From Phoronis australis (Eukaryota > Animalia > Phoronida): a stretch of DNA of 64,000 nt. Positions 1,354 through 57,458 of this stretch are shown one piece after another. The stretch's first letter is position 1; every line of letters begins with the position of its first letter. The stretch covers positions 1,189,531 through 1,253,530 of the forward strand of contig NMRA01000018.1 of NCBI GenBank assembly GCA_002633005.1. Direction: 5' to 3'. The position numbers were made by a program, and so were the translations under genes. A model generated the notes under the pieces. That model made no database searches, was not told the origin of the DNA, and was given only the letters and a program-made list of their open reading frames with translations.

Positions 1354-2508
1354 TATATCACTGACTGATCACTGTTCCTCGCCAGTACTTGCCGTGTCTG
1401 TAGAGACATATAGCACAACTAGTGTTAAGCTCTTGTTTTATATTATACATTATACATTATATACTATTTCTGTACAGTGGCTTTAAAAAGCAGTATGATG
1501 TTTACACCTTTGTTGATCTTGGGTGTTTAGTTGTCTCTTCATAATCTCCAACTCATCACTTGTAGTCAGCTGTTTGAAAAGAAATTAACACAAAATAAGC
1601 AAATGTATATTCCCAGAAATGAAAAACAACAGACAGTGTCAACAAAGTAACAACTGCGGATGTAAAATAGGATGCAAATGAGATGGTTTGTGAAATTACA
1701 TGATCATAGTGTTTGTGTGAAATAATGGTACACTCTATTTCCCATACCAATGGTAACTGAAACTTCCACTTCACACAGGTATATATTAAGTAAACTTTAA
1801 TTGAAACTTTAACGGGGATGCAAGTGCCATAATTTAAATATCCTCACGGATTAACAAATCTATAGTCTGAATCCCTCCCTAATTTTAATTAAAACAATTC
1901 TCATTTTTGGTAACAGTGAACAAGTTTGAGCAGAAAGGCACACATTTACAGCAACATACATTACAGTCTAAACGTTTTGTTATACACTTTCCATCACAGA
2001 CGGACCCATGACCAGCACACTCAGATCAACAAAACCATGATGATGAAGCTATTACAATTGGTGTATACAGCTTTAAATGATAACGTTAAATGTGCTGTTG
2101 TAGATCACGGCAATTGTTCACATATTCTGCACCAAAATAATTACAGAAATTGACGTTCTTTCATTTTTCCATGTCTGATTATCTATTTATGGCAAATCGT
2201 GTAAACTAAACTCAATACAAGGCTGATAACAGACTAAAATATTTTCATCTTTGTTTTTATTTGAAAAATTTTACAAATTGAAATTTGCATTTCCAGCCAT
2301 CTTGTACACTAAGCAAAGAATTACTGCGTATGTTTTTCACTCCTTCCTAATTTGGTCATAACGGCACTCTAGTTCTCTCTATCCAAGTGCTGTAAATGTC
2401 TTTAAGCATGCTTTGAGGGTCGTACCTTTGGTTTCACAACACAGATTTTTAAGAGACAGTAGTCTTTGGATCCAAATTTTATGAAACTGCCATAGAAAGT
2501 GTAAACGC

Positions 2509-2761
2509 CATGTTCGCACCCAGCCTAAAAAATTGGGGTGCTCCAACTTTAGGAAATGTGGACTTTTTACTGATTTAGGGGATAGGTTTAAAGCTGTGAA
2601 TTGTGCATTCGCCGAATTTCGGTAGTTCCTGTCTTTTTAGTGGACTTTTGTCTCACTTCCCACTTTTTTCGTAGTTTTTGTTTCTCTGAGGCGGATCTTT
2701 TTGCCCACTTCATCAAATGAGGGGGGCTCGTTTGAGCCCCTCCCCCCTGGGTGCACGCATG
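2509..2761. mobile_element. Second copy of the CATG-ended MITE, opposite orientation
   Basis: CATGTTCGCACCCA..TGGGTGCACGCATG; flanks AACGC/AACAC; interior similar to the reverse complement of 37141-37388. Confidence 0.8.
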
Positions 2762-4353
2762 AACACTGGGTGCTTTCACAGAGATATTTCCTTACCTTTC
2801 TGAGACTCCAACATTTGGATTGCATGGTGGAGAAATACATGGTTTAGTTCATGTTTCTTGCAAGATGAGCTTGGCAAGACGATAACATAAATCAAAGAAC
2901 ACTTGATTCGTCAAAGGCGGCCCAATCATAAACTGATATCGGGCCAAAAATCACCAGAATTGATTCTTGTCCGCAAATGATTTATTTTGAAACCTGTGCC
3001 TCACTGCTTTAATGGAAAAAGGAAGAATTCACTTGGCCTCTTGTGACGCTGAGAAAAAAGGTTTCCGGGCCACCTCAGCTAGTATCATGTGACCTTTTTC
3101 TTTTTGAAAATATGGACAGTTAAAAAGTACTTCATTAATTAAAAAAGATCAGAACCAATCGATGCTTTTTTGGTCTTACCAACGTAATGAGGCACTAGAC
3201 AATGAGTACAAAACCAGTAATGAAATTATTAAGTTTCATGATCTCTGCACCTAGTGGTCTATAGAAATGAAAAAATAGAAATCGTCTATTTTTTCTGCGA
3301 TTTTTGTTTGCTACTATCACTACTAAAGAGGGCTTCATTCTCCCTGGACCCTGTCATGGGTCTGCCTTTACATAAGTAATTACAGGTAGGTATCTAGATC
3401 ATCTGTGAACAACATGTAGTTACCTGAGTGGCGACTGTTGGGTGCCTCTACATTATCATAGGCACTGTTGCTATACACGTTGTGGTACATATCATGCTCG
3501 CGTGAATCTGAAACGAAACACATACATTGTACACGATGAAATCTCANCCTCTCCCCTGGGTGCACGCATGAACACTGGGTGCTTTCACAGATATTTCCTT
3601 ACCTTTCTGAGACTCCAACATTTGGATTGCATGGTGGAGAAATACATGGTTTAGTTCATGTTTCTTGCAAGATGAGCTTGGCAAGACAATAACATAAATC
3701 AAAGAACACTTGATTCGTCAAAGGCGACCCAATCAAAAACTGATATCGGGCCAAAAATCACCAGAATTGATTCTTGTCCGCAAATGCTTTATTTTGAAAC
3801 CTGTGCCTCACTGCTTTAATGGAAAAAGGAAGAATTCACTTGGCCTCTTGTGACGCTGAGAAAAAAAGGTTTCCGAGCCACCTCAGCTAGTATCATGTGA
3901 CCTTTTTCTTTTTGAAAATATGGACAGTTAAAAAGTACCTCATTAATTAAAAAAGATCAGAACCAATCGATGCTTTTTTGGTCTTACCAACCTAATGAGG
4001 CACTAGACAATGAGTACAAAACCAGTAATGAAATTATTAAGTTGCATGATCTCTGCATCTAGTGGTCTATAGAAATGAAAAAATAGAAATCGTCTATTTT
4101 TCTGTGATTTTTGTTTGCTACTTTCACTACTAAAGAGGGCTTCATTCTCCCTGGACCCTGTCATGGGTCTGCCTTTACATAAATAATTACAGGTAGGTAT
4201 CTAGATCATCTGTGAACAACATGTAGTTACCTGAGTGGCGACTGTTGGGTGCCTCTACATTATCATAGGCACTGTTGCTATACACGTTGTGGTACATATC
4301 ATGCTCGCGTGAATCTGAAACGAAACACATACATTGTACACGATGAAATCTCA
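2741..4353. repeat. ~807-bp direct duplication joined by a single N (3547); probable haplotig/scaffolding artefact
   Basis: 2741-3546 and 3548-4353 are near-identical with scattered SNPs. Confidence 0.85.
4187..4314 (-). CDS. GPCR probable terminal coding exon (C-tail DSREHDMYHNVYSN..DDLDTYL*); a near-identical copy lies at 3380-3507
   Basis: Strong acceptor GTTTCGTTTCAG, phase 1 matching the exon 17 donor, and an open frame to TAA. An internal GTAACT could act as an alternative donor. Confidence 0.65.
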
Positions 4354-7300
4354 ATACGGGCAGGCTCTCAGAACTTATTTTGGCTCAGTATTCCGTAGCC
4401 AGATCAAGCAATCGAATTCAGAGTCATGCGCTTCAGTCTAGCAATAACCTGTCAGTTCTTCCGATGTCAAAGAATTGTTCCAATTCGGGGAAAGTCAGGA
4501 CTGAGGTATTTTAGTACAATGAATCAGTGAGGGCCGACAATGCCTGCCCCCATTCCAATGCTCACCAGGAGTTGAGGATTAAGATTCACCATGCAGGTCA
4601 ATAGCCCCAGTGGTAATAACTTTCAAAGAACCTCGTAATTTAAAGCGCTGTGAAAAATGTGGCATAATTATAATTATTGTTGTTTTTCATTTTGGCATTT
4701 CAATTTTATTTGACTGGGTCTAAAACATCAAATGATGTCATACTAAACATCCCCGCAGCCCTGAGTGTCCTTATTGAAAGTATTTTTTTATGGAAGGAAG
4801 GTTTACAGTCCCTTTAAAAACAATCTTACTAGTGGTAGGCCAAGTCACACGGCTGCCACATGGCTACTCTGAGTGATGCCATAGACATCCACAATGGTGA
4901 CCTACATTGTAAGCAGTTTCCTTGCTTCCAATCTTAGTTAACTGGATAACTTCTCTACAAAGGGTCGCATGTCGCCAAGAATCTTTTAAAATGTAACTAG
5001 CCAATCCATGAAACCATATATTTTTCAAATCCTTCATGGTCACAGAATCACAGAAGCCTAGTGCACACGAAAATAATGCTTCACTGTTTGTAGTCTCAAT
5101 GCAATTTTCCAAATTCTGCATAGGTAAGCCGCGGCTGCCACGTAGGTGACGAATTTTGCATGAAACTTGAAAATTCTACTGGTCTTGGGACGACTGGGTT
5201 TTTGGTCTAAAAAAGCCTTGATAATTTTTCCCAGACTCACGATTGTACCTAAGATAATATAGATAGCATTTTAAAGTTTTAAATGAAATTTGTCACTTAT
5301 ATGGCAGATCATAAAATAATTTGAAAAATACATTGCTTTCTTGGATTGAAGAGTTGTACATTAAAAATGTTTAAAGAAGTGTGACCCTTGGTAGCAAAGG
5401 TATTCAATAACAACCGCTGTAAACTATATTCTGGTGTCAAACGACAACTTTCTTAAAAAGTGCATTTCCTCTTACAAAGCAACCTCATCATGTTCCTAAC
5501 CATTGTCTGAATTTTCTTGTAATAAAATCCTTGAAATTCCCGTGACGGCTTTACTACTTCAAAGGCTGAAACTAACCTCCGGAGTAAGGACTGTAATAAG
5601 CATGGTGTCAACCAATAGTGAGCTGACAGTTCTGCTCAAGTCAAATTGATTATAGTCTAAATAAAGAAAACTGGGGTCGACCAAATTTATAACCGTAAGT
5701 GGCTTGACTCAAAAGTTGTTTTTTGTCAGAAGGCGCAAGTTTATTTCACCTTAAGGATCAATGTAATACCCTGGGAAAATGTCCAAATATGGCTACCTTC
5801 TAAACATCATAACTCAGAGATGGCTAATCGACATCCTAGGAAAATTTCAGGCTCTTTGCTTTATGCAGAGTTCTCCAAAATGTTCCGCTTTTGCCGCATG
5901 AGGAGCTATCAAAAATACGACTTATGATTTTCGTGAAAAAACTCTAAAGTTGCAAAAAATGAAAACAAAATAATTAAGCAAAACTGCTACAGCATTTTAT
6001 ATCCAATGAAATTTGATCATGTTTTTGCTACCATTCTTTTGATACCAATGAACGTACCTTTTTCTAAATTTTCCTATTAAAAACAAATTGGTAAAAAGTC
6101 GAAAATGAAATTCTAAAACCGTTCTACTCTCAGGAAAATCAAAATCGAAAGTTTTACACATTTGACTAAACGTAGACCAGTCGATAAGGTCCTATATAAC
6201 CTTAAGGCCTAACTTCAACAGAATTTTGTTATTTTAGATGTATTGGGCTTACCAGATAGTCCGGCCTAGCAAAGCCTTAATAAAATAGTTGTGAAAACAC
6301 AAGTTCAATCGTGCAAACGTAAGCCCCGCCAAATAATAAGTGAAGCCGCCTTTTCGTGCCATGTTGCGTCACCGCGAGATCCCAGCACAAACAGCAAAAG
6401 GCCGATAACAGTTGTAGTGAATAGGGGTCTGAATAGTGTGAGGGTGTTAGTCGCAGCTGTTTGAATTAAAAAGTGATTCTCACAGTGACGTAGACAAAAG
6501 CAAGCCAATACACCTAACAGTTCATTACATTTGGCAATTTATGGAACTAGTGGGCTCAAAGTGATGCTCTTAACATACTGTAGAAACCAAATTTACAGAA
6601 TGACATCACTGCTTAAGATAGGCTTTAAGAAAATTATTAACTTTATTGAAGACGCCCCAGATCTTGGTTTCTAACCTACCATCTGCTCTCTTACTGGCAG
6701 CATATTGTGACTTCTTTTCTTCCTCCAAGTCCTTCCTGTATCGGCCGAGTAGCCACAGTTTCCTTATAAAGATGCAGCCGACAATGATGTAACCGTTGAC
6801 AACATTCGATATGGCAATGGAGGGATCCCTGTACTGGTGATCTGTTAGGGTGGAGACGATCGTCCAGACGATCCAACATCCCACTGTGAAGAGTGCGGTG
6901 ATGAGGACCCAACGGGCCTCACGATGGTTCAGCTCATTGTCGTACGTGACGAAACCCATGATGGCGGTCATCAAAATAAGCACCATGACGTAGACGCAGG
7001 ACAAGACGAGACCCTCGTTGTGGAAATCATGTGGTGAACAGCGACACCTCAAATCGCCGTTGACATATATTTCGTCAACATATGGATGACGGAGTATGAG
7101 CCACTCTGTGTTGATGATTACCTATAGAATCAACGACAGCTTTACTCTTACTGATCGATACTGCACTGATAAAAATCCACAATTTTCCCAGTAATTGTTT
7201 AATATTTTATTTTAATACTCAAGCCTTTTGATTTTATCTAGACATTTTAATGATTCTCTGTCCAGTTTTTACATTTTTAACGATATTCGACTGTTTTTGT

Positions 7301-10300
7301 TCTAAATGTTTTGTGAAGATTTTACCTTGACAAAAGGCCCAGTTAGAGGTAAACAATGTGAAGGAATAGCAAAATACAATTACACAGATGTCTTAAGGAA
7401 GATAACGTCAAAACTATTTTAATTTACAAAAATGAGCTAGAGTCTATTGACAGGTATATTGACAACAACATACAGACTTTACGGATTAAGCATTTTATAG
7501 ATATCGGTATTAGCGAATGGAAATAACATGCCAGAAAAACCAATTTAAAACTATTTACCAACCTGCACCAAAACGAGAAACACAGCTATGAAGAAGAAAC
7601 ACATTGGATGAGAGAGGTTTTTGTACTTGTCCGTGTCGTCGTCACCAACGCGCCAGGCATTGAGTACCTTCAGCAGAAGCGGTGCAAAGATCATCGCGTA
7701 GACAAAGCCCTGGCCAAACCGGCGTATAGCACACACCTGGTAACCGGGGAGGTAGATGAATGCTATATTGAGTAGAAAGAGTAGCAGTACGCCGACGAGA
7801 ACAAAGAATCCGAGTATGGAGGTGCCACCTTTGACAGGGTAGACAGCACACAGGTAAATGATGAGAATGAAACAGAAGAGGGCACCAATGCTGCTGAACG
7901 CCAACACAATGATGCCCCAGGCGTTGTGAAATTCGCGTGCCTGATCCTCCGGCGATATCTTGCACTGCATCTGTTTCAGCGAATCCTTTTGGGTATTGGC
8001 ACCTGTCTGACCATTGGTAGTACCACTGTTATTTGTGTTCTTACAAGAACACTTTTTGTCCACAGGACAGATGGATAAGCTGATCTTGCTTAGATCGCCA
8101 TTCGCAGAATAGCCAACAGGGTCACTGACCATGTCCAGCTTTTCTTGCCAGTATCCAATCTGCAAGAAGAGGATTTTCAACAAAAGTAAGCATCATCATT
8201 CATTTCAGATAATACAAAATTAATATGCTTTTGGTTATTTCACAAAGAGCACAACAACAGTCCTTTCGCGTTGTTTTGCGCGCGAAGCCAAATCACGAAA
8301 TAAGCACGTGCGTCTGTGAGAGATGACAACCAAAAATGTGGTTTGCCATAGTGGTCACTGTGGCCATTCAGACTCACACCTGCAGCCATCTGGTGTTTAC
8401 AATAATTCTAAAGATCCCTGGCTGCACGTGTTGAGGGTGAGATAGTTTCACCAACGATTGAACTTCTACCCTCTCACAGTCAACATGTAACCAGTTCTCC
8501 AAAAACATTTGCCGTACTTTAACCAATGTAATTTTTTACATAGGCCTATGCATTAACAGGAAACATACTTCCGATAATTTGAGCTGATTTTCTTTTTAAA
8601 AGTCGTCAAAAGTTTGGTTCATGTTAAACACTCTTTTTATTATAGTTAACTGTCAACCTTAGTAGATTTTTTAAAATTGCAATTATTGTATAACTCTATT
8701 TTTATTCGTGTTACTGTATAACTTTATTTTTCATTACTACCCTTAGCAATTCTTTAAACACATTTTTATGTGCCAAATGAGCGAGTTATTTAACTACTTT
8801 GCAAATTTTGATGGCCATTTTCAGAACTTTTAATTTCTTAATATGCTATTCGCAACTTAAAACATCTAGATTTTCTTTAGCACCTCAGTAGATTTGCAAA
8901 AAAATCAGGTCTAGACGCCAAGTAGTCAGACTTTTACACATATTTTCCATCCTGCAAACAATTTCCGTATTTCGCTATCTCGTTCTTCTTGGTTGTGAGG
9001 TAAGATTATAGTGAATGTACAATGGTGATGCTAAGCACACGACGGACTTCACTGTTTTTTTCCTTCAGACTTTTGGGAAGCGGGTCGCAATGAGACATCC
9101 CACATTCATGGATATTTATCCAGTTTATGCCACTACCTTGAATCGGCATTACAGCCCATGGCACAGCAGTAGTACTTTCTGTGACTTAATGTGACTTAAA
9201 ATATGAAGTATTCAGATGACAGATGCTAATAGTAACAAATGAATCTTTATAGGAGCGAAAGCGAGGCTGCTGACCTGCCTGCCTTATCTTTAGGTGTGCT
9301 GCTATTTTGTACCTCACAGCATGGGAGAGCGATCAATGCAGAAGGCTAGAATTAGACTCTCGCCAGAGTACACAGAACTAAGGTATATAGTGCCATTTTG
9401 ACTGTACTCGCATTGTCTCGCACACTCACGCCACCATTTTGTGCTTCTGAGCATGCGCATAGTGAATGAGGAAGGTCTGTTGAATATAGTATTTGAGTAC
9501 TTGAATATAGTAGTTGAATATAGTAGTTGAATATAGTAGTTGAATATAGTAGTTGAATATAGTAGTTGAGGGTCTCAAATTCTAGTCTGCCTTGGAAACA
9601 CTTGACATGAAAATGAGAAAATACAAAAATCTGAAATGTCAACAATTCAAACCAGACTTTAAAATGCAAAAAATCTGTTATTTTTTTATTTTTAATGACA
9701 ATTTAAGAGTTGGCAGGACTTAATTGACAGCAGACTACACATGTTTAATCTTACCAGTTTGTAACCATATTCATCTGCTGTATTCCTGGCCGAAGGATTT
9801 CTCACATAGTTATAGAAATAGTAGCCAATATCGCCATAGCGATCACTGGTAAACTTGAAGGTGAGATTCCTGCTGTCAAAGGTTACTCTCCACTGAGTAA
9901 TCAAGATCTGCTCATATATTTTTTGCCGTCGGTCTTTCAGCTGTTTCACGCATGCATAGACATCCTGTGATGCACTCTGTCGACATTCTGGAATATCATT
10001 GATACCCTTAGCGATCTCGTAGACGGAGATAATGGTTTGATAGACAAACGGATCCATAGAGATCATATCCTCTGTTATCACTTCATTAGTGGTGCAAAGC
10101 TGGTTGTACTGCTTCTGAGGGAACTTGCTCTGACGGTACTGACACTTGTGGATGTGTTGCCAGAACTCTTCGAACCAGTCCTTTGGAATTCCTTTTGTGT
10201 TTGTGAAACTCAGCTTGGCCACCCACCTAATGAACTCCGGGATGGGATCAGAACGGACCTTTAAGGTGATTGAACCCAGAGCAACATCTTCGTAACCTGC

Positions 10301-22300: not shown

Positions 22301-25300
22301 CAACCTGGAAATAAAACTTTTCTGATTGTGAATACAGTATAGGCCGCCACATTTCCACCAGCCTCACATTTGAAAAATAACAATGACAACATGACTGGCA
22401 TATACCCAATATAAAAAAATCGGAGAAAAACATAAAGAATTATTGAACCTTGCTGTCGTTATACCACTTGTGATTTTGCAAATTTTAAACACCAACCAAA
22501 TGTCTTCAGATTTTTCCACTTTTGTTATTTTTGTTGACATGTTTAATTAAACCAGATATCATTTCATTTCACATTGGTAAAACGAAGCATAGCCAAGAAT
22601 ATCATTGAAATGAATACTAAATATTGCTTACGCTTGATTGAAGCAGTTACAATCTCAGATAATAGAGACAATGAAAATGACCATTCAACAGCCCTAATAA
22701 TGATTCTAGACTATATGATCCATAGTAGGCATTTTAGTAATGCAGCGAAAATCTCTCCAATTTCGGACAAAACTACAAGTTACCATAATTGACCTTTTGT
22801 TTATTTTACAAGATTTTGTAACATTTTTTGTGAATCCCCATGATTCGTGAAAAATATTGTCTAATCCAGAACCTGAGTCTGCTCAGTTAGTTCTGCACTT
22901 GCTATACTGGAGGAATCTCAAGCAACAGTACGTCTGCCTATTATGTGACACGTCTGGTCAAAAGTTTGGATCTGCCACTGTTCTGGTATAGAACTTGTAC
23001 ACAGTGCTGCACCTCATCTAGGGCAAAATGAGACGACAAGATTTCTCTTGTCAGCTATAGTGTGTCCTACATACTAGAGATTTTACTGTGATTCAGTTTC
23101 TAGTAACACCCAGGCTCTTTTTGATTCGCAACAGCATTTGCAAGATGCTGCTAATCCACGTACTATATTTCATCAAGAATTACTGATGCACAGTAGCATT
23201 ACATATGGTTTTACCGATCAACACTGAAAAGAGAGTGTAATTTTACGTTTCCAGTCATAACAATACCTTTACAGCCTTGTTAGCAGAAGCCTTGAAATTG
23301 TAGACATCAAAGTCAAAGTTTCCATATTTGTTGATAAACTTGAAGTTATGTCCCCCTGCTGTCTTGAACATGGCCTCGTTGATTTTCATGTGCAACACTT
23401 TGTTATAGTCAGCAGCATTTCTAAAGTTGGCACAGACACCGTTGTAACCTAGTCAAGGACAGAGGAGAATCAGAGGAGAATCAGAGAGAATACTCAAACA
23501 CCAACCAACAAGATTACATCATTCTAAATCACAAATGCACTTAACACTGATAACCAGCTTCAGCAACTCTCACCAACATAACCGGACATAGTATGATGTT
23601 CCTTCAGTTATTTTCCGCAAAAAGAATTGCCAAAATGGCAACTTTTCAAATTCCAAAGGCTCACTCCAATGTGTGTTAAGTGCTGTTTTGTGGTGGCAAT
23701 ATAGTGCCAACTTGCCACTTATTTTGCACAAAAATAATGGTCAAATTGTCTTATTTCCATTTTTCCAACTAGGCAGATTACTCAGCTACAGATAACGGAA
23801 ATCTTACAAAATGCTGTTTAAAGACATCTACACGGTACAAACCATCCTAGTAATGAACTTAATTTTTATTAATTTTTATTTTTGTGGAGAAATTTTGACA
23901 ACGTATAATCCCACTTGTCCGCCATTTTACGCGCTAAACAAGGGGAGAACCACCAGGTGTCAATATTAACGTAATTTCTTCACGGTCGTTTTTGCTGAGG
24001 AAATTGGCAGAGATTCCATGTTTATGCCATACTGAGTGGCGAATCACTGTACTGCCTCTTGAACTAATGTGATTCTTCGCACAGGCTTTTGCCAATACAG
24101 CAACACCATCACAATCAAGTCGCCTATATACAGTACAGGACAAAAGTAATTAGACAAAAAATACAGTTTTGCTGAGTCATGACGGCTAATTCTGTTAACA
24201 GCAAAAGTGACTGGTAATAACTATTGGGGAATCATGATTCTAATTACAGAATGACTTTAGCCACCTTACTAGCTTTCCTGTTCATTTCTCTTCATTATCC
24301 GTCATGAGAGAAGATTACTTTGACGGTGAATTTGACGTTTGTCCAGCCATTACAATGTGGAATTCCAGGTCATTTTGTCTGAACACTTTTGGCTTGTACT
24401 GTACCTGCCAGATACCCCACTGACACAACAGCTTTCATATATTGCGTTTGTAACTTACCAACACCACAGTAATGCTTCAACGTTTCATGGAGACCATGGG
24501 CGGTGGCATACACAGCAGTGATGACGGACAGAGAGTTGTCCCCACAGCCCATAGAGGGAGCTGCAGTAATGGGCGAGGAAGACGGGTTAGCACATTTCTA
24601 GAAAAGAAACAACAAAGTTGATTATACATCCTAAAAAGATACAAATATGATTAATTAAATAAGAAAAGAATGAATACTTAAAATTTATGGTTTTTGCCAA
24701 GTGCTGATGACTGATAGCACTATTTCAAAAATGACACTTATCTGGATGTACCTTAGGAATATAGTTTGTTGAAAATCACCATATTCATGTAAAAATTATC
24801 TCTATTATTCTACCCCTCACAATCCTTTCATTTCAAACTGTCCACTTTTAATTGGTAAATGCAAACTTTCTATGAAATTGAACTATATTCTGGCTACAAA
24901 AGAAAGCCTGCCGATCAGAGAATGCTGAAAATGGTGTGAAAATATGAGGGAACATACAAATTCTGATCGTGGTACAAATAAAAACAGTTGACACAGCTAT
25001 TGCTCAAAAGGTAGATGTAATGCCTGTTAAATAAGACTTGCAGTGCAAGGAATCTGCCAATATTTTTTATGGGTAAGTACTGAAAGCAGAGTGTCTCGTA
25101 ATCTTTCTTTAGACATTTAATATCAAATCAAAATGCATTAAGGTTTTGAAACAATTTGAAAAAACAAAATAAAATTATAATATTAAAAAGGAATCAACTT
25201 TAGAATAAAAAGAATTGGCAACACACCTGCGGGTAACCCCAAGGATTATGCTTGTCATCCAGGTAACAGTTTTTCAAAGACTGGTATATCTCTTTGAACC

Positions 25301-28300
25301 ACGGGTTTTCTGAGTAGCTGGATACATCAAGAGAAGCCAGGTGTGTGTTAAACTCGGCCGGTGTTGGTGCACTCAGTTTGATGTACACCAAACCATCCGC
25401 ATCAGGCATGTAGTCAAGGTCACACGAGTCCGACACAATTAGCAGTCTTGACTGGGCATTTTTAGACTTGATCGCGTTGAGCAACTTGACGACGTAATCG
25501 TTGTCAGCGAACGACACGACAACCTGAGCTTGAGGCATGTCAAGCATGTGATCAACAACATCCATCTGGTCTCCCTTAGACATGTACTTGGCAACGACGC
25601 AGATACCAGCGTCTCTCGCCAAGTCACTGAACAACTTGCCAGTAGCCTTGGAACGATCACTGCCATCGATGAACATCTGAACATAATTCCAGTTGTTCAA
25701 TGTAAGGAAATTAACAATTGCCATAGCCTTGGCCTTGTCAGATGGCACTGTTGTTAAGGTATACGGGAACGTATCCAGGAGGGCCTGACTGCCGAAGCGT
25801 GCATGAATCTGTGGTCTGTGGTCATATATTGTCAAGGCAGCAGTGTCCGTACTTAGAGGTCCAAGGTCAGTCATGTAGTTGGTAGTGTAGAATGGCTTTA
25901 TGTGCTCGCCAAAAGGGGATTTGTACGTAGATAAGCCTGGTAACGAGAAATAGGTTATGTGAGACTTGAATATCTTATGCTATGTTACATAGGACCTGTA
26001 CTACTGCCGAAATATAAAGCTAAAGCCTTTCTTCAGCATATGTGAAAAACGTGTCAGCAGTAATCAAGGAATCATAAACAAACATTCCACGCTTAGAGAA
26101 CAGTTCACAAAATTAATATTCTATTGAACAGGTGGCATCACGTGTACATGTGGAGAACGTTAAGCAGCGTCCACCTGCCCAGAGAAGTGATCACACCTCA
26201 GCCTTCCTCACCGACGTACTCTAGACGTCTGGTCATCCTATAGACATGCGGGTGTTGTTCATTCAAAATATTTTTGCAAATTGTACAATTTACCCAAACA
26301 CCAAGTCAAGCAATGGCATCCAAAACACTATAGTTTATTGTATAGAAGAGTTAACAGGGCTGTTTGTTTTCAACCTTAAACAGGTGTTTGCATGCCAATA
26401 CTTATACCATGGTATAACAAGAACTAAACAATAATGTTATTTTAACATTTCCTAATCGAGCTGTAGTAATTGTTTTCTTTCACAGATAATTTGTAATTAT
26501 GTGAAAACAAAAATTTCTGCACATGGACAACCTTTGCACTGATGTTGCACCTCAAAGGAACACTTGACCTGCATCATATGGTGTTCTTCACCAGTACCGT
26601 ATCATGTCACTTCCTGAACACGACACGCTGATTAGCAGCAGATCACTTTCGTGACAAAATTTATTCTTAAACATTTTAGCAACTTACAGACCACAGTGAC
26701 TTTATCTACACAACGTCCTATGTTGTATATCAAACGCGTTTGCGCGCAACTTCCACTTATATGCACTCTATCAAACTCCCAGTGTATTTTGCTGATCCTC
26801 CAAAGAATCAGAGCAGGTCATCAAGAGACATAACAAAAATAGTTATAAGGTTATGCAGGACTATAGAAAAATTACAAAATGTTGGCCAACTTCAGAACAT
26901 TGTATCTCAGATATGGGTAATCAGATTTTGAAACTTCAGACACTATGATTTATGCACTGCTTTGCAAAACACCATCAGAAATATAGTTTTTAAAATGTTC
27001 CATTATTTGTATGAGGGTATGGGGAAAAACAAGAATTTTATGATCTTCATGAAGAAAATCAACAGTTGCGTATAACGAAAACGAAATGAAAATGTGGAAA
27101 ATTGTGACATTTCTTGAGATTTCATCTTGTACACTTACATTAAACAAAACTTGTTCATGTTGTTGATATCACTGTTTTTCCACAACGATTAAGGAAAAGC
27201 TTCCCAATCAATAACTTTGAGTGCATAAAAGTTGTCAACAGAAATCGCGTCTTCAGCCAATTTTGCGTACATGAGGGAGGCTTCAAAACCATTCAGTGAA
27301 GATATCAAAAAATTCTAACTATACCTGCTTTATACTGTGAAAGCAGCAGATTGGTTGCACTCGGGGATGAGCACGTGTCCAACCCGAGGCCACCCAGGGT
27401 GACACCGTTGAGAATGCCTGGGAATTTGGTACGGTCGTTCACGTTGCGCAAGGCATAGATGAAGGCCTGTGAGTCCATAGCTTGTTCTTTGTTCACTTTA
27501 CCACAGCCGTACTGAGTGAAGCCAGTCTTATGTATGTTAAATAAGCCAGCCAGATAGAAGGTGCCGTCACGAGAGTAATACTTCCTGTTGTCTAATGGTG
27601 AAAGACAGTTGCTACAACCAGAGCTTGGGCAAGGAGATGCTGGTAAAGAGGGTAGCTTGGCAGTGCGGGCGTTGTTGTACATTTCGATTGGTTTGCTCAT
27701 GTCTCTAACAAATCGAGTATCCAGGTATTCTGCAACCTATAGTGTAAGGAGTCACATTTTAAGAGTTTTAAGAGTTATAGTCAAAGAGACTTCTGGAAAC
27801 TTTGCATAAAAATGAAAAAATATTGCTTATGTCTTGAACAAATGTTCATTACCAATTTAGGTTGAATCTACGTATATGAACATATTCTACTGTAACAAAC
27901 AAACCAGATCACCTATCAAAAAATAGTTTACAAGAATGCAAATTTAATTTTTTTTCATTTCAGCTAAACCACTCAACTCACACTTCTAAAAAGGAATGTT
28001 CCATTGATGTCCTCGGCATAGTTCCAGACTCCGAATGTGTTGTCTTTAATATCTCCATTCTGATCAAACTCGACAACTTTTGGAGCTTTCCAGGGTGGTT
28101 CATAATGCGACGAAAGACTTGGAATGCGTTCAGCCGTTTGATAAGTGAACTTGTTCGGCTTAAGGTATGTGTTGAAGAACTGCTGGCGACTCAGTCTGGC
28201 AAGGTTTTGACACATGCCCAAGGTGGCGCCACACACAGCTTGTCTGGCTTTCTTCAGAGCATTGGCGTAGGTATACACAGCATGAATAGCTGGTTCAACA

Positions 28301-31300
28301 TGACGGCTCTGTACAAACTGCTTGCGACGCTCAGACTCTGACGGAATCACGCAGTTGGGATAAGCATTGTACGGAGCATAGTTAATGCCAGTCAGCTTGC
28401 ACTTGTACGTGGTCATCCACCATTCCTTGAACCAAGGATTCTCCGCACTGGGGTTGTTAGGGTCTATGCTTACCCAGTGCGTCTCGAACTCGGCAATGTG
28501 ACGGAAATGGTGCTCCAAAAACAAGGCGCCTTTGGCCATGGTTAGCTTCGTCATAGCTGGAGATCTCATCTCGTTACCTGCCAGAATCCACTGCAAGTTG
28601 CCTTTCCCCAGTCGGCCAGCAGACTCCAAGAACATCTTCGCTTGTGACCCATGCCCAACATACACTACGCCAGTAGTTCCGGTCATTTCCACCCCCTTGA
28701 CAATAGCGTCATAAACAGCGAGGTTCGTTTCTTGTCCATCTACCTCTTGCACAAATGTAATGCATATACCCTCTGCCAGGGCCGTTTTTCGTATTTCCTC
28801 GAGAGATTCCTGCCCCATTGATGTACTGTCGTGAATTAACGCAATGTATTTCCACTGTAGGTGCTTGAGCAGTTCGACAAGTGCCTGGGCAGTCTGTACA
28901 TTTCGAGGAATGGTCCTCATAAACGTGGGGTACTTTGTCTTGTCGCTCAAGGAGGTATCTGTCGCCGAGTAGGAGATCTGACTGATGTCGAACTGACTGG
29001 CCAATGAACTGACTGCTTCACTTGTGTCGCTCTTGGATGTGCCAAGTATACCTAAAATGACAAATCACGCAATAGTTCAGTCTGTGAAAAGCTGTCGTCT
29101 GACTATCGTGATCAGAAGGTTGCCTATTTATACTATTTATGTAAAAATCTACAATCTGTAGTAATTTTTTAACAGGTGATTGCCAATAAAGGAAATTATT
29201 TCGAGGAAAAGGACAAGAATCACACCGAGACTATTTCTGTGGCACTTAAGACAAAAATGACAAAGCAAGAAATGGCTCTATTAACGAGATACAAGCATGA
29301 AATTGTGGCGTGTCAAACAAGTAAGAACATTCATGGACGTCAATGGGTGAGACAGTAAAATCTAACCAATTTCGGACAAAACGATTCCCATGATTTCCAT
29401 ATTTTAAAGTTTAAAAAATTCTAACACTGTTTTGAATGGCCAGTTTTTCAATTATTGTCCAATGGTAGCTTAGGTACTAGCAGAACTTGAAATTGAAAGT
29501 AATTCTTCTGTGTTACCCATCTGCTCTAAAAAGAAAATATATAAAATTTCACCAATTTAGGTCACAGTATGTAGAGCAAGTGAAATTTTATTTTTTTCAT
29601 AAAAATAAGTTCCACAAAATAAAGGCTTCATCAACTTGTATACCAAAGCAAATATCTGACAATGTTTTGAGTAACTGTGGACATTTACAACAATCTTAGG
29701 AGCCCTTGAAACTAAAAAAGTCAACTTTGGCGTTTGTTTTTGTCAGAAATCAGTGACATTTTAGCATATATAAAAGTTCACTTGTTTGCCTTATTGTGTT
29801 CTAACTAGGTGAGATTTGATCGTAAGCATGCATATACAAACCAAAAAATATTTGGTTCAAATTTGAAGAGCAGGCAGCCATATCATATCCAGTTTCTGGG
29901 AAGTCCTTCATAACACCAAACACTGCGGCTGCCTTGGAACTACAAGTGTCATGAACCTTCAACCCTGAAAAGAGAAGTAAACAGAAATTAGCTAATTAAA
30001 CAGAAATTTTATCAAGCACATGAGATATTGTGGTTGAAGCTGCTACAAATTGACCTTGTATTACAAATTCAACTTTTGGTTCAGACCACTTACTGTTTAA
30101 ATTGGTCCCAAAGTGTTCCTTAATCAAACTGGTGATTCCTTCAGGGCTTTGTAAGAACATATAGTTCGTTAGAGCTTGAAACCTGGCTCTACAGCTTAGC
30201 TTGTCAGCGTGTCATTTTCAACTAAAATAAGTTTATTTCCCCTACCCCTATAATTGACCACAAATATTTGAGCAACTCAAAACTTTACACTTGAGATAAG
30301 ACAAAAGAATTATTTTTTCAATTTCAGAAACTTATAATATTTTTGTAATAAAATAGTGCACACCCCTATATTGAAAGCTAATAACTTAATGACCAATCTC
30401 GCCATCTCAAAGGGTTAAAGGTAGGGGGTGACGCTTTAGTATATGATTTGAAGCCAATTCATAAATCGTGAATAATCCTCAGTAAAGGCAAAATTTCTCA
30501 GGCTGAAAAGTTTACTGTACATATATATTCAAGTTTGGCCAATATTAATTAAGCTTTTTGAGCCAACTTTATTCAAGATACCACACTAAGCTCACATAAC
30601 TTAGCTAACTAAATAACAGATGTTCGTACTTCGGAGCACTTGTGTGTACCACACACCATGTTGTAATGTCTGAACAGGTCATGCGATTTGTTAATTGTGA
30701 CCATCAGGATATAATGCGGTAAGAAAACATTCAAACTAAACTGTGTGTGTTACTGACCGGCAATCTTATTCAATTAAGCTTGCACACCAATTGTTACCAA
30801 GAGGCAAGGTTTTGCAAGCTTGGAATTCGATGTTAAAAAAAGTTGGCAGGCCAAACAACTTGATTCACTTAGAAAGTTTTTTGAGAACCCCGAGTTATAG
30901 TTTACCGGCCCTGTCTTTACAAGCGAACTAAGTAATGGCAATAGGCAGCAAAGACATTCAAGCTTGGAGAAAACATTCAAATAGTGTGATGCAAGTTTGA
31001 TCCAATTTAGCTTTAGTTAGTACTCTGAAGTCCACACACCTATTTTCACTCCAGGGACATATCTGTCAGTGATGGGCTGCGTGTTATACACTCCTGTGTT
31101 CAGGTTGACTTTGGACAGAGCCCATCGAAGAGCTTCAAATCCTTGCATGTGATCTGAAATGAAGACAAAATTATTAACATGACTGTGATAGCAAGGTGTG
31201 TCTTAAATGTTGATCAAGAAAGAACATAGGAGGAAATCAGCAGCCAAATTAGATTTCCTAGAGCTCTAACCTATAATTGACCTATCGCCAGGATCTTGAG

Positions 31301-32748
31301 TGACAGCTTAACTGACCAATCTGAATGCAGCATTCTTGAAAGATCTTCGTTTCCAAGCCGCCATTTTACCAACAAACAACACGTTATTGGGTAAAACTAA
31401 TTGCTTTTTTTTGTCGGGTGTCACGTGACTTTTCGCAATTGGGCAGCAGCTTGCGATAGGTCAATTAAGACCTCTGTCCAAACACCCACCTCCCCCACCA
31501 ACCTCCCGCACCCTGTTACCACCGTTACATGCTAACCCCCATTGTCATAATTTTCAAGACCCCCTAATTTGTGTAGGAGTTTTCCCATTAGTTCATAGAC
31601 AAGCCAACTCGGACCCAGGTCTACTAACACACTAATTTTCATTTTAATTCAACACTATGCATCTTTACCGCATGTAAAATGCCTCAATGTAACAATGCCA
31701 AGAATCAAGAATCTTTATTTAACGTCGTTCGAAGAACAGTAGCCGGTTGGGCTATTTCTACAACATTAAATTGAATTAGCATGACACCGAGTCGTTTTAC
31801 ATAACGATGACACAATTTGATTTTAATCAATACTTTGACAAAATAAAACAGTTTTCACTCTTTTGAAAATTAATTTGGGTATGAGTTGACTTGCAAGGTA
31901 CGGAGTTGACTTGGAGGGTACAAAGTAGGCTATCCGGTTTGCAGGACACGTTGTGGCTAAGTTCTAAACGAGATAATCCTGTACTGCCTGAGATACTAAA
32001 GCTGACCTTAGTAACAAAATCTATTATTTATTTGGCCACTTGCCCAATGTTATGAAATGGGTCTCCGAAGAGGTGATGTCTGGGTTTGGAAACAGGTACC
32101 AGTGGCAGGCCGGGGTTTGGGGATATTATTGAGAGCTCATTATAACATTGCCTGAAAGGCTGAAACCAGGTTTTACAAGTGAGTTAATAACCACGGTCTC
32201 CAAAAACAACGAACAGTCAAACCAAGAAACCACGCAGTACTCACTTCTTCAGTCATGAACAACTTCTATTTTGGTTGGAACCTCTATTTTTAGGAAGATC
32301 TTTAGAAGTCTGCAGCTGAGTAGGCTACTGAAGACAGGCCAAATCCAGATATAGACTGTGTGAGTGAGTGGATTTCACACTTTCATGGTTTTTGAATCAT
32401 GATTCCACTTGTGACTAGTGATAAGCCGAGTTAGGCTGTTGCTTTGGTGGTTAGGGTCGCCCAAGCAATTCTGCCAAGTCGTGGCCATTCACGTTTAAAA
32501 TTGCATGGGCTCTCAAGCACTTGTTGACAAGGCTGGACACGTAGAACTACAATGCTTTTACCTGTGGAGACTGGGCCACATTTTTTGGCACCTGTGGCGA
32601 GTTCATGGAACGCCACATGACTGCTGAGAAAGGCAGTAGCACCAGTTTGATCCACCCAGTGGTCGCGAGAACACGTTTTCTTGGACAAATCTGAAGCACC
32701 GCCAGCTGCTCGTAGGACTGTCAAGACGCACAATAGACGGCGCCACAT
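4187..32748 (-). CDS. Class C GPCR with five tandem Venus-flytrap domains plus 7TM (~2846 aa). Coding exons in order: 32562-32748, 31040-31153, 29842-29964, 27982-29051, 27325-27736, 25227-25936, 24459-24597, 23267-23448, 20874-22304, 18608-18779, 17214-17420, 16159-16354, 13661-14421, 11689-11855, 9755-11257, 7563-8159, 6680-7121, 4187-4314
   Basis: Manual splicing gives a continuous 8541-nt frame with GT/AG at every junction and matching phases. mGluR/CaSR VFT motifs (GxFxxH..CG, GGxxLDTCS, QISYxxT..LSD..YPxFxRTxP, GICI, NPWFxExW) recur five times. Class C 7TM motifs are CAIRRFGQG..LLLK and NHREARW. The last exon is the least certain. Confidence 0.9.
6680..7121 (-). CDS. GPCR exon 17 (end of TM4 to TM7, start of C-tail)
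   Basis: VIINTEWLILRHP..CRC..LVLSCVYVMVL..NHREARWVLITALFTVGCWIVW..IFIRKLW. Confidence 0.92.
7563..8159 (-). CDS. GPCR exon 16 (Cys stalk, TM1-TM4)
   Basis: IGYWQ..SICPVDKKCSC..AWGIIVLAFSSIG (TM1)..CAIRRFGQGFVYAMIFAPLLLKV (TM3). Confidence 0.93.
9501..9569. repeat. 13-bp minisatellite (TTGAATATAGTAG) x5
   Basis: Perfect tandem copies read directly. Confidence 0.95.
9755..11257 (-). CDS. GPCR exon 15 (linker plus entire VFT5 in one exon)
   Basis: DLNILGFFDVH..KLGGLAVDTCSS..MVSPSATSPTLTDKVKYPYVLRTSPPD..DWFEEFW; 1503 nt, phase 0-0. Confidence 0.94.
11689..11855 (-). CDS. GPCR exon 14 (end of VFT4)
   Basis: GVKFQDATKQEFSFD..RGYHIYS; donor GTATGT, phase 0. Confidence 0.88.
12397..12664. mobile_element. 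Diverged copy of the TA-flanked MITE
   Basis: Colinear similarity to 24131-24401 (GTCATGAC.GC.AATTCTG ... TTTTGTCTGAA.ACTTTTGGCTTGTAC). Confidence 0.65.
13661..14421 (-). CDS. GPCR exon 13 (VFT4 core)
   Basis: YPYFFRTVPADDKQA..GSYGE..GICI..GSDEWG..RNPWWEE. Confidence 0.94.
16159..16354 (-). CDS. GPCR exon 12 (VFT4)
   Basis: YVGALKNDVSVKMASLLNVLSIPQISYGSTSLLLSNR. Confidence 0.92.
16569..16756. repeat. 19-bp minisatellite (ATTCACACCCATCTTCATT), about 7 copies decaying into 18-bp units
   Basis: Tandem copies read directly; explains the spurious repetitive ORF 16534-16758. Confidence 0.92.
17214..17420 (-). CDS. GPCR exon 11 (VFT4)
   Basis: GVFDVH..FSCG..GFQLVEAFNFAIDQVN..IGGIALDSC; donor GTAAGA. 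Confidence 0.92.
17624..17655. repeat. (GAT)n microsatellite
   Basis: ATGATGATGATG run. Confidence 0.9.
17795..17990. mobile_element. Fold-back MITE with ~55-bp imperfect TIRs
   Basis: TAGATGCATCAGAAGTCTGGCGAGGTTCGCAATCTC versus GAGATTGCAAACTTCGTCACATTTCTGGTGCATCTA. Confidence 0.7.
18608..18779 (-). CDS. GPCR exon 10 (linker and start of VFT4)
   Basis: SSCVGTCTQC..YIPGDLLIAG. Confidence 0.9.
19540..20660. repeat. Degenerate tandem array of roughly 130-150-bp units
   Basis: Recurrent blocks: CACTAGG(G/T)GGCA, ..CATCAG.., AAATTTCACAAAGATCCT..GGTTTAG. Confidence 0.55.
20874..22304 (-). CDS. GPCR exon 9 (linker plus entire VFT3 in one exon)
   Basis: SQCTTSSCAVC..PGDIILGGTFH..LISPSAT..YPTLYRTVPSD..DPWFEEWY..NAVYSFAQAL; 1431 nt, phase 0-0. 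Confidence 0.94.
23267..23448 (-). CDS. GPCR exon 8 (end of VFT2)
   Basis: GYNGVCANF..FKFINKYGNFDFDVYNF, homologous to the VFT3 C-terminus; not in the ORF track; phase 1-0. Confidence 0.88.
24131..24401. mobile_element. Tc1/mariner-type MITE (TA-flanked, CAGTAC ends); family of three copies in the window
   Basis: TA|CAGTACAGGACAAAAGTAATTAGACAAAA .. TTTTGTCTGAACACTTTTGGCTTGTACTG|TA; related copies at 1097-1353 and 12397-12664. Confidence 0.75.
24459..24597 (-). CDS. GPCR exon 7 (VFT2)
   Basis: KCANP..VITAVYATAHGLHETLKHYCG (AVYAxAHAL motif); donor GTAAGT. Confidence 0.88.
25227..25936 (-). CDS. GPCR exon 6 (VFT2 core, divergent)
   Basis: FPYTLTTVPSD..WNYVQ..GICVV..NPWFKEIY; splice sites phase-compatible. 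Confidence 0.9.
27325..27736 (-). CDS. GPCR exon 5 (Cys linker and start of VFT2)
   Basis: SPCPSSGCSNC linker, then DGTFYLAGLFNIH..CG..GVTLGGLGLDTCSS. Confidence 0.92.
27982..29051 (-). CDS. GPCR exon 4 (VFT1 core)
   Basis: GILGTSKSDTS..QISYSATDTSLSDKTKYPTFMRTIP..GICI..NPWFKEWW; donor GTGAGT, phase 0. Confidence 0.93.
29842..29964 (-). CDS. GPCR exon 3 (VFT1)
   Basis: TTTCAG acceptor; GLKVHDTCSSKAAAV (DTCS motif); phase 1-1. Confidence 0.85.
31040..31153 (-). CDS. GPCR exon 2 (VFT1)
   Basis: TTTCAG acceptor; DHMQGFEALRWALSKVN..YVPGVKIG matches the class C EAMxFAxxxIN..LPGxxLG motif; not in the ORF track. Confidence 0.88.
31274..31467. mobile_element. MITE with perfect 15-bp TIR
   Basis: TAATTGACCTATCGC ... 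GCGATAGGTCAATTA. Confidence 0.65.
32562..32748 (-). CDS. Multi-VFT GPCR coding exon 1: signal peptide and start of VFT1
   Basis: MWRRLLCVLTVLRAAGG is signal-peptide-like, followed by HVAFHE..KKCG. Donor G|GTAAAA (phase 1). An acceptor TTCAG lies 1 nt before the ATG, implying an upstream non-coding exon. Confidence 0.8.
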
Positions 32749-55815: not shown

Positions 55816-56104
55816 ATGACGCAAGAACAGGTCGTTATGTCTGACGAAGACTGTCAGACCAGTGGTAATAACCACTCAGAAGACGAATGCTTTACAAACG
55901 CGATGTCGTCAAAAAATACAATGGAACGCGTCAAACTGAGTCACAAATCTGACGGAGGTTCTACGCCCTCTGGGTCGAAGAGACCACTGGCACGATTGTC
56001 TGCAAAGGCGTCGGCGTTCTCCATTGAGGCTCTCATGGCACCAAGTCCCGCCAAGAAAATGAAGTCAGAGGGAAAAGAAGAGGCTAAATTCCCTCCTCCA
56101 ATAG
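55816..56104 (+). CDS. TBX20: Tbx20 (H15/midline) T-box transcription factor, coding exon 1
   Basis: RLSAKASAFSIEALM matches the Tbx20 N-terminal eh1 motif (vertebrate LSSRANAFSIAALM); donor G|GTGAGA. Several in-frame ATGs make the exact start uncertain. Confidence 0.85.
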
Positions 56105-57238: not shown

Positions 57239-57458
57239 ATAAAGTAATAGAGCAATCGCCAATCGATATTGTTAGCGACGCAGACGACACTGACGGCGAG
57301 AGCGAGGTTCTCTCTCCTCCCTCCTTCTCCACGTGCTCGTCTCCTCATGAAAATGGAACAGAGGGAATGGAAAACACCCGATGTCGACTGGAAACTAAAG
57401 AATTATGGGACAAATTCCACGAGCTTGGAACAGAAATGATCATTACTAAATCTGGAAG
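57239..57458 (+). CDS. TBX20: Tbx20 coding exon 2 (start of T-box domain); gene continues beyond the window
   Basis: TGTTTCAG acceptor in phase 1. [26 protein letters not shown] matches the Tbx20 T-box start. Donor AG|GTTAGT. I found no RMFP exon before 64000. Confidence 0.93.

Follow-up and report, generated by a model that had tools for sequence, protein, structure and literature searches.

Class C receptors are described as carrying one flytrap per chain, within a fixed range of N-terminal layouts (excerpt of PMC12716839). The best solved matches to the Venus-flytrap (VFT) modules and the seven-transmembrane domain (7TM) of the receptor reported here are the mGluRs (mGlu3, mGlu2, mGlu5; PDB 2e4u, 9ii2, 8tqb), in which one VFT is followed by a nine-cysteine cysteine-rich domain (CRD). 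The group of CaSR, GPRC6A, T1R and V2R also has a single VFT and a full CRD; in CaSR the amino-acid backbone pocket is formed by S147, S170, Y218 and E297, and the disulfide C236-C561 anchors lobe 2 on the CRD (excerpt of PMC4977154). Venus kinase receptors likewise place a VFT in a new architecture in invertebrates, but they combine a single VFT with a single transmembrane segment and a kinase domain and have no 7TM. A further group is that of the non-glutamate mGluR-like arthropod receptors P0005-P0007 (single VFT and NCD3G), which presumably resemble Drosophila mangetout/mXr.

The window, a 64,000-nucleotide stretch of Phoronis australis DNA, holds a receptor with five VFTs. It shares with the mGluRs the VFT cysteines, including that of lobe 2, an S/T/D/Y/D pocket in VFT3, K3.50, E6.35 and the TM3-ECL2 cysteines, and VFT3 has mGlu3 as its best solved match (E=2e-44, among the best 60 of 92 matches), with 155 bits for mGluRs against 79 for T1R3. 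It differs from them in its three-cysteine knuckles and variable stalk, the missing R68/K389 pair, the replaced TM7 proline and a 7TM that falls in a clade of its own. With the CaSR/GPRC6A/T1R/V2R group it may have in common a putative amino-acid backbone pocket lacking the glutamate-specific basic residues, and a predicted lobe-2 clamp; the 7TMs of that group (3 rows only) fall outside the multi-VFT clade. P0005-P0007 likewise retain the backbone pocket without the R68/K389 pair, yet stand outside this clade. As in GABA-B there is no nine-cysteine CRD. In GABA-B a binding and a non-binding VFT share the labour, a split which resembles the mixture of intact and degenerate traps seen here but is distributed over two genes; no GABA-B chain was present among the best 60 of 92 solved matches to VFT3, or among the 43 and 45 solved matches to the two halves of the 7TM.

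One spliced gene for five flytraps and one 7TM

The gene lies on the minus strand from 32748 to 4187 in 18 coding exons. An exact rebuild of the spliced model gave an open reading frame of 8541 nt encoding 2846 aa, in which the sole stop is terminal, all introns are GT..AG, and phase-0 introns divide the ectodomain into 498/481/477/501/501 aa; exon number, protein length and module sizes are thus those claimed in the earlier note. An in-frame stop precedes the ATG. The features are as follows (all on the minus strand; joint counts are reads across three RNA runs).

34453..34480, minus: end (3') of a 5' exon without coding sequence, joined to acceptor 32749, GT donor after 34453; based on 24 X3 reads whose loose ends at 32752 match 34456-34480
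32562..32748, minus: exon 1, with ATG, signal-peptide-like N-terminus (judged by eye) and start of VFT1; joint 31153/32562
27982..31153, minus: exons 2-4 (31153-31040, 29964-29842, 29051-27982), VFT1 (aa 36-502); PF01094 E=1.8e-39; RNA joints
23267..27736, minus: exons 5-8 (27736-27325, 25936-25227, 24597-24459, 23448-23267), knuckle 1 (C534, C539, C542) and VFT2 (aa 555-983); VFT1-2 joint 4/14/5
20874..22304, minus: exon 9, knuckle 2 (C1010, C1015, C1018) and VFT3 (aa 1029-1460); PF01094 E=1.1e-43; VFT2-3 joint 4/13/7
11689..18779, minus: exons 10-14 (18779-18608, 17420-17214, 16354-16159, 14421-13661, 11855-11689), knuckle 3 (C1486, C1490, C1493) and VFT4 (aa 1507-1961); inner joints seen; VFT3-4 joint 6/28/3
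9755..11257, minus: exon 15, knuckle 4 (C1981, C1991, C1994) and membrane-proximal VFT5 (aa 2011-2462); PF01094 E=3.7e-34; VFT4-5 joint 2/22/8
6680..8159, minus: exons 16-17 (8159-7563, 7121-6680), knuckle 5 (C2489, C2495, C2497), stalk, 7TM and start of tail; PF00003 E=2e-13 and 3e-14; VFT5-7TM joint 6/19/15
4187..4314, minus: exon 18, encoding three YxN motifs of the tail; inner donor 4231, stop 4187
3380..3507, minus: second copy of exon 18, 98-99% identical, in an 807-bp tandem duplicate
1556..1569, minus: final coding exon in the main isoform, adding ADYK and a stop, then 3' UTR

The locus is a single spliced, transcribed gene. The earlier note had proposed junction reads across the 17 introns as a check, and all 17 were seen as splice joints in each of the raw RNA-seq runs X2, X3 and X4, with 1-32 reads per joint per run; the runs come from one study, about 18-19% of each was sampled, and continuity of the mRNA is followed joint by joint in short reads. 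A contig of 1229 nt bridges exons 15-17, and of 68 listed coding positions at which reads depart from the window, 50 are synonymous. That neighbouring single-VFT genes were fused by mis-assembly or by splicing in silico is refuted in practice: short reads show no single full-length molecule, and fused "CASR/V2R partial" entries do exist in Polypterus and Sigmodon, but the four joints between VFTs and that between VFT5 and the 7TM recur in three RNA runs, which excludes separate VFT genes or a mis-join, and orthologues are colinear across about 2800 aa in several phyla, their modules clustering by position.

The ending at 4187 given in the earlier note exists as a read-through form, but a minor one. 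In most reads exon 18 is left at the inner donor 4231 (3424 in the duplicate copy) for the exon from 1569, so that the main protein ends in ...NSRHSADYK at about 2836 aa. This last exon was placed by sequence match, the loose-end consensus at 3415/4231 agreeing with 1540-1560 with 1 mismatch in 21, where no chance matches are expected. The 807-bp duplicate adjoins N at 3547 and RNA joints reach both 4314 and 3507; it is probably an assembly overlap. Joints at 20433/20809, 31368/31448, 2628/2742 and 6364/6411 fall outside the coding exons and were set aside, and intron 7 is offset by a few bases (23448/24460) in one X1 contig. A T insertion at 9918 (6/47 and 3/28 reads), in a T run next to an allelic difference, probably stems from alignment or sequencing. 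Many reads start at 10070 and 11830, each in one run, and joints carry on across both positions.

The product is one chain with five mGluR-type VFTs above a single 7TM, and thus has the class C features of a 7tm_3 domain and an N-terminal VFT, the latter in five copies. Pfam searches on 12 exon pieces found PF01094 in exons 4, 6, 9, 13 and 15, with a sub-threshold piece in exon 12, and PF00003 in exons 16 and 17; PF07562 (NCD3G) had no match in these pieces, which include the linker-bearing exons. A VFT profile made for this analysis recognised five full-length domains on the spliced protein, at the residue limits listed above, so that the predicted 5/0/1 pattern of PF01094, PF07562 and PF00003 is recovered. 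The modules are 22-31% identical to one another in module-to-module BLAST, and self-BLAST of the whole protein returned the self match alone, with the repeats unseen. Seven hydrophobic segments are confined to the region after residue 2537, the 7TM spanning about aa 2537-2783; in keeping with the earlier note, neither a stop nor a membrane segment separates the modules.

Knuckles, pockets and membrane region

Each VFT is followed by a three-cysteine knuckle in place of a CRD. Among 204 inter-VFT junctions examined, those with a lobe-2 cysteine have exactly three knuckle cysteines in 189/193 cases, and those without it never do (0/11; seven have two and four none), the third knuckle cysteine being absent whenever the lobe-2 cysteine is. 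The losses occurred in arthropods, echinoderms and one further lineage. Such joint loss points to a disulfide clamp between lobe 2 and knuckle that is conserved in the family. An AlphaFold model of a nemertean VFT3-VFT4 pair, from an alignment of 27 rows only, folds both domains (mean pLDDT 85.9) and leaves their relative position free (pTM 0.55, pLDDT <50 just past the knuckle).

The backbone-binding positions S/T/D/Y/D-E are kept at 2, 3, 5, 4 and 3 of 5 in VFT1-5, and VFT2 was judged by eye to be the most degenerate pocket of the Phoronis protein. On sequence grounds, some of the five pockets, but not all, appear competent for amino-acid binding. At least four positions are kept in 15, 7, 11, 19 and 9 of 25 spiralian proteins for VFT1-5, and VFT4 is the most conserved module; pocket residues vary even in VFT3, Y222 being kept in 9/25 orthologues. 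In ambulacrarians VFT3 is the most conserved module (n=7: S 7, T 6, D 7, Y 7, D/E 7). Five arthropod proteins contribute 20 modules, not one of which has a full pocket, so amino-acid binding need not be kept for the family to survive. R68 and K389 (mGlu3 numbering), which we take to be the distal-carboxylate residues of glutamate binding, are paired in 3/3 single-VFT mGluR controls and in 0/5 modules of the receptor, and identity as a glutamate receptor was rejected for want of this pair.

In the 7TM, K3.50 is found in 29/29 and E6.35 in 28/29 spiralian rows and the TM3 and ECL2 cysteines are invariant; we assume that these form the usual lock and disulfide. The mGluR TM7 proline is substituted in 29/29. 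Kinship with GPRC5/BOSS, suggested by TM7, was dismissed, as exon 17 scored 22.8 bits with GPRC5D against 31.1 with mGlu3, and GPRC5D was not among the solved matches listed for exon 16. The stalk between last knuckle and TM1 has 41 aa here, rich in Ser/Thr/Gly, and spans 25-74 poorly conserved residues across the family, a poor fit with a rigid relay of movement. Its cysteine C2524 is not conserved and was discarded as a tether to ECL2. A conserved C-terminal PDZ motif was ruled out by differing tails, the main isoform having another ending. V4 has conserved helices B and C, and V5 a conserved helix B.

The loose coupling of traps in the AlphaFold model and an exposed, low-complexity stalk would suit a receptor in which the membrane-proximal trap alone signals, the four distal traps concentrating ligand or being shed at the stalk. 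We consider this very unlikely, as the proximal pocket is the weakest across the family (mean 2.2/5) and the clamp cysteine is kept in every module (125/125).

Relatives across Bilateria

On sequence comparison the receptor is a member of an old, bilaterian-wide family with two to five VFTs. Full colinear five-VFT relatives number 29, in nemerteans, molluscs and amphioxus; there are four VFTs in arthropods and ambulacrarians, and three and two in paralogues from sea urchin and amphioxus. Ten of the five-VFT relatives lie on Logan contigs of 8.7-10.2 kb, which barely exceed the reading frame and are therefore probably assembled transcripts. The multi-VFT 7TMs form one clade (support 100/100), separate from mGluR and CaSR/V2R, in a tree of 30 knuckle-type rows against 5 mGluR-type rows, all of them invertebrate, with CaSR/GPRC6A/T1R/V2R represented by 3 reference rows only. 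P0175 (three VFTs, cysteine-free linkers) falls outside this clade and was kept out of the member count. The Polypterus and Sigmodon entries (P0045, P0046, P0051, P0052, P0059, P0081) have ragged, partial VFT arrays, are probable annotation fusions and served solely as outgroup pieces. The ESM Atlas yielded generic ANF/7tm_3 clusters only. The Drosophila orphan CG32447 is presumably a candidate for the same 7TM clade or multi-VFT layout.

FastTree indicates separate expansions of the middle modules, one in spiralians and one in arthropods, so that length itself may be under selection. The ectodomain could then be mainly a structural arm, an adhesive or mechanosensory tether to protein or matrix, with the 7TM signalling on partner or force. 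Some other receptors do bind protein or matrix partners through N-terminal domains of the VFT fold, and the arthropod pockets, the generally degenerate proximal module, the flexible hinge and variable stalk, and activation of mGlu2 by force (according to a preprint abstract) are all consistent with such an arm. It is nevertheless unlikely, given the intact or near-intact pockets at fixed positions across spiralians and in ambulacrarian VFT3.

Molluscs and one brachiopod also have proteins with two VFTs, a knuckle and a single transmembrane segment, whose modules group with VFT1 and the middle modules of the family and keep 5/5 backbone positions in 12/12 modules (6 proteins examined). These might bind the ligand in an obligate pair to which the receptor contributes 7TM and tail, possibly with output through tyrosine motifs, instead of or in addition to G proteins: YxN, presumably linked to Grb2-type SH2 binding, occurs in the tail of 28/33 spiralian proteins against about 11 in shuffles, the sequences being related and not independent. 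No single-pass form was however recognised among named matches from arthropods or deuterostomes, and YxN is not enriched beyond spiralians (1/5 and 2/10), which makes an obligate pair distinctly unlikely.

Possible mode of action and significance

By analogy, the receptor likely works like the CaSR/GPRC6A/T1R/V2R amino-acid-sensing group. Our leading reading, which we regard as an even call, is a dimer with several pockets that detects amino acids other than glutamate. Each knuckle would be clamped to lobe 2 of the preceding trap by a disulfide between the lobe-2 cysteine and the third knuckle cysteine (predicted pairs 238-542, 748-1018, 1223-1493, 1707-1994 and 2204-2497), a reduced version of the CaSR/mGluR clamp between VFT and CRD, while a hinge of 11-18 residues would form a loose connection from it to lobe 1 of the trap that follows. 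The result would be a jointed rod, very roughly 30-40 nm long. Two chains may lie side by side, pairing by way of conserved helices B and C in lobe 1. Amino acids would shut those traps whose pockets are intact (in this receptor VFT3 and VFT4, in many relatives VFT1), VFT2 and VFT5 serving chiefly as spacer and transducer; the paired traps would then re-pack, the two 7TMs meet and the G protein be activated, the YxN motifs offering a possible second output via adaptors.

It is tempting to speculate further that this class C branch dates from the bilaterian ancestor and performs within one chain the multi-ligand logic of vertebrate heterodimers. A distal and a proximal trap would be ancestral, with independent expansions of the middle traps in spiralians, arthropods and deuterostomes, and clamped knuckles would relay distant closure down a rod tens of nm long to integrate several amino-acid or metabolite signals, possibly with the single-pass two-trap proteins as co-receptors. 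We offer this tentatively, as possible but doubtful. The earlier note had likewise suggested that several ligands might be integrated, or that the chain might act as a long extracellular sensor.

The earlier note knew of no characterised receptor with such a layout, and none was described in the openly accessible literature searched. Members of the clade are concealed in databases under "uncharacterized" or "mGluR3-like". With members in molluscs, nemerteans, chelicerates, crustaceans, echinoderms, hemichordates and amphioxus, this conserved clade, whose chains carry two to five traps, breaks the one-flytrap rule of class C receptors. It provides a natural test of the distance over which VFT closure can be relayed and of the need for a full CRD. 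The family is a candidate sensor of nutrients or waterborne amino acids in tractable animals such as Aplysia, Lymnaea, Octopus, crayfish and sea urchin.

Gene structure and transcripts

By domain and motif the window protein is a class C GPCR, and its sequence anatomy is established. Six-frame translation placed Venus flytrap (VFT)-like and seven-helix (7TM)-like reading frames on the minus strand at ~4.2-32.7 kb, and a phase-guided choice of splice sites gave a model of 18 exons (8541 nt, 2846 aa) with all introns GT..AG, in which phase-0 introns cut the ectodomain at 498, 481, 477, 501 and 501 residues. This reproduces exactly the exon number, length and modules proposed in the earlier note, which had also placed no transmembrane segment between modules; indeed residue 2537 is the earliest position for any membrane segment. 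Among 12 exon pieces, Pfam matched PF01094 in five (exons 4, 6, 9, 13, and 15), PF00003 in two (exons 16 and 17), and PF07562 (NCD3G) in none, and a VFT profile made in this analysis found five full-length VFTs (VFT1-VFT5) on the protein, so that the predicted count of 5/0/1 for PF01094/PF07562/PF00003 was borne out. The modules are just 22-31% identical to each other and a recent or assembly duplication of them is therefore ruled out. Exon 18 lies within an 807-bp tandem duplicate (window 2739-4353, 96-99% identical) whose join carries one N and which probably stems from overlapping haplotypes in the assembly.

The RNA material comprised one set of contigs, X1, together with X2-X4, raw RNA-seq runs from one study, ~18-19% of each run being read. 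All 17 introns were found as read joints in every one of the raw runs, including the links VFT1-2 (4/14/5 reads in X2/X3/X4), VFT2-3 (4/13/7), VFT3-4 (6/28/3), VFT4-5 (2/22/8), and VFT5-7TM (6/19/15), as the junction check called for by the earlier note would have it. No single read among X1-X4 spans the entire message. That the five-VFT chain is an artefact can practically be excluded, and the interpretation as a single-gene five-VFT class C GPCR is supported. First mates map to the plus strand across the exons, which matches minus-strand RNA in a usual stranded library, and 50 of the 68 displayed coding differences between reads and window are synonymous. The exon chain of the earlier model stands, but the reads revise its C-terminal ending and add a non-coding exon upstream of the coding exons, ending at 34453. 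At position 3423 the base expected from an inner-donor exit of exon 18 was seen in 17/17 reads of X3, 13/15 of X4, and 2/4 of X2, and the loose ends of these reads match 1540-1560; the main product is therefore ~2836 aa with the C-terminus NSRHSADYK, where we infer the joint to 1569 since this position is outside the aligned stretch.

Other features of the window are:

55792-57492, plus strand: T-box exons (PF00907, Pfam; FSIEALM motif)
40212-40487, plus strand: THAP-domain-like frame (E=1e-4, slightly below the Pfam cut-off)
49900-52230, minus strand: two similar open frames ~1.9 kb apart with a long common stretch
16550-16720: 19-bp minisatellite in intron 11
12564-12662 and 24301-24399: dispersed repeat, two copies 74% alike, with reads from both strands

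The T-box gene, which may resemble Tbx20, is head to head with the receptor, ~21 kb off its 5' exon. The THAP-like frame is probably a transposon remnant. The similarity of the paired frames suggests another local duplicate; the one frame scanned had no Pfam match.

Relatives and module history

Relatives were collected by three word-index searches and one full HMMER search (2463 matches at E<=0.001, best 150 listed). Among the matches listed at least 29 are colinear five-VFT + 7TM proteins, with named sources Tubulanus, Lineus, Haliotis, Aplysia, Lymnaea, Physella, Biomphalaria, Bulinus, Babylonia, Batillaria, Bradybaena, Plakobranchus, Sinanodonta, Solemya, Argopecten, Argonauta, and Branchiostoma. 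Nemertean proteins are the closest of those listed (37-37.5% identity full-length), and the Lineus protein is equal in length to the window protein, yet distinct from it. Four-VFT forms occur in hemichordates, echinoderms, scorpion, horseshoe crab, and crayfish. A member with three VFTs was seen in Lytechinus and one with two in amphioxus. Two Macrostomum entries with four VFTs and no 7TM match may be incomplete. No vertebrate member with the three-cysteine linker (knuckle) that replaces the nine-cysteine domain was found among the 30 named of the best 150 of 2463 matches. Ragged multi-VFT arrays in 'CASR/V2R partial' entries of Polypterus and Sigmodon (P0045, P0046, P0051, P0052, P0059, P0081) look like fused models of tandem gene arrays and can be confused with this family. 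Nemertean paralogues have neighbouring locus numbers (LOC141898799/800, P0015/P0018; LOC135483288/289, P0014/P0019) and two five-VFT lineages of old standing exist in molluscs; the whole gene was therefore duplicated more than once.

In a 7TM tree of 39 rows the 30 knuckle-type rows fall together on a single branch (100/100), roughly ordered as the animal tree and apart from 5 mGluR-type and 3 CaSR/V2R-type rows, an outgroup sample that is small and holds no vertebrate mGluR. By the features tested the window protein is outside mGluR, CaSR/T1R/V2R, and GABA-B. It differs from mGluR in its five VFTs, absence of PF07562 and of the glutamate-specific R68/K389, and separate 7TM branch, and from CaSR/V2R in that knuckle-type 7TMs branch separately (three reference rows). 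One cluster from ENA/Logan (P0175 and others) has three VFTs and a 7TM, cysteine-free linkers, intact pockets, R68 kept and K389 replaced. The P0175 7TM falls outside the knuckle clade of the 39-row tree, and P0175 is apparently an independent origin of a multi-flytrap receptor.

The VFT trees (FastTree) have long branches and call for caution. In them spiralian modules cluster by position, VFT1 of spiralians and arthropods joins VFT1s of single-pass relatives (0.96), spiralian VFT5 pairs with arthropod VFT4 (0.99), and middle modules cluster by lineage (0.91 and 0.98). These groupings suggest an ancestor that had at least one distal and one proximal trap, with separate elongations later.

Linkers, pockets, and possible modes of action

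VFT-to-VFT spacing is 36-59 residues in the window protein and eight relatives, and exactly three cysteines are present in 134 of 137 linkers (39 proteins scanned). In CaSR the lobe-2 cysteine C236 is disulfide-bonded to the CRD (PMC4977154). The lobe-2 cysteine is kept in 125/125 spiralian modules. Over 204 junctions, modules with it were followed by three knuckle cysteines in 189 of 193 cases (four in 3, two in 1), and modules without it in 0 of 11 (two in 7, none in 4, one of these a broken gene model); where two persist, the missing one is the third. The losses are confined to arthropods, echinoderms, and one further lineage and therefore represent few independent events, not 11. This joint loss supports a putative disulfide from the lobe-2 cysteine to the third knuckle cysteine, together with an inner bond between the first and second. 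The hinge after the knuckle has 11-18 residues and the stalk ahead of TM1 a variable 25-74. An AlphaFold model of Tubulanus residues 1036-2010 (27 rows) has two well-folded VFTs (pLDDT 85.9, pTM 0.55) joined by a low-confidence hinge, their orientation not being fixed.

Among solved structures mGluRs are closest to both VFTs and 7TM. Pockets were scored at five amino-acid-backbone positions (S/T/D/Y/D-E) after mapping of the mGlu3 positions. The columns are validated by three single-VFT controls (two named mGluRs), in which each of the eight residues expected was present; CaSR equivalents are in PMC4977154. R68 and K389 are absent, at the mapped mGlu3 positions, from all modules of the window protein, and VFT1-5 keep 2, 3, 5, 4, and 3 backbone positions (means in 25 spiralian proteins 3.8, 2.8, 3.5, 3.9, and 2.2). 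Conservation is highest in VFT4 among spiralian modules (43% vs. 32-38%) and in VFT3, with intact pocket, among ambulacrarian ones (48%), and 20/20 arthropod modules have degenerate pockets. K3.50, E6.35, and the TM3/ECL2 cysteines are retained and the TM7 proline is lost. Of 33 spiralian tails, 28 carry YxN motifs vs. ~11 in shuffles, with no enrichment in other lineages.

We infer, with roughly even confidence for and against, that the window protein senses amino acids as a dimer: the middle traps would bind them, each trap would be clamped by its knuckle, and re-packing would reach the 7TM by way of the proximal trap and the stalk. The looseness of hinge and stalk and the degeneracy of the arthropod pockets run counter to this, and they favour three other readings. 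That the ectodomain is a structural or adhesion arm is possible, if doubtful. Distal traps serving as a ligand concentrator seem improbable. An obligate partnership with single-pass two-VFT relatives is unlikely, although the pockets of the latter are intact, with a full backbone pocket in 12/12 modules examined. These molluscan and brachiopod proteins (P0080, P0085, P0096, P0098, P0106, P0126, P0138, P0146, P0004, and others) combine two VFTs and three-cysteine knuckles with a single TM helix and a long tail in which Pfam matched nothing; three terminate in EKISRV, presumably PDZ-like. They are candidate co-receptors.

Place among class C receptors

A check for an already described family, as the earlier note advised, found no description of multi-VFT class C receptors in the full-text literature searched, which reaches neither supplements nor most subscription papers. 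Among the sources consulted, PMC12716839 gives the canonical class C layouts, 'tandem' in PMC9138782 means genes, and no multi-VFT receptor was found in PMC6307864, PMC1192796, PMC2246102, PMC11650548, bioRxiv 10.64898/2026.09.05.749567, or bioRxiv 10.1101/2020.05.07.078311. Database names of members are 'uncharacterized', 'hypothetical', domain-based, or 'mGluR-like'. Multi-VFT receptors are thus already in databases, apparently undescribed, and the five-VFT architecture is one that class C specialists would not expect.
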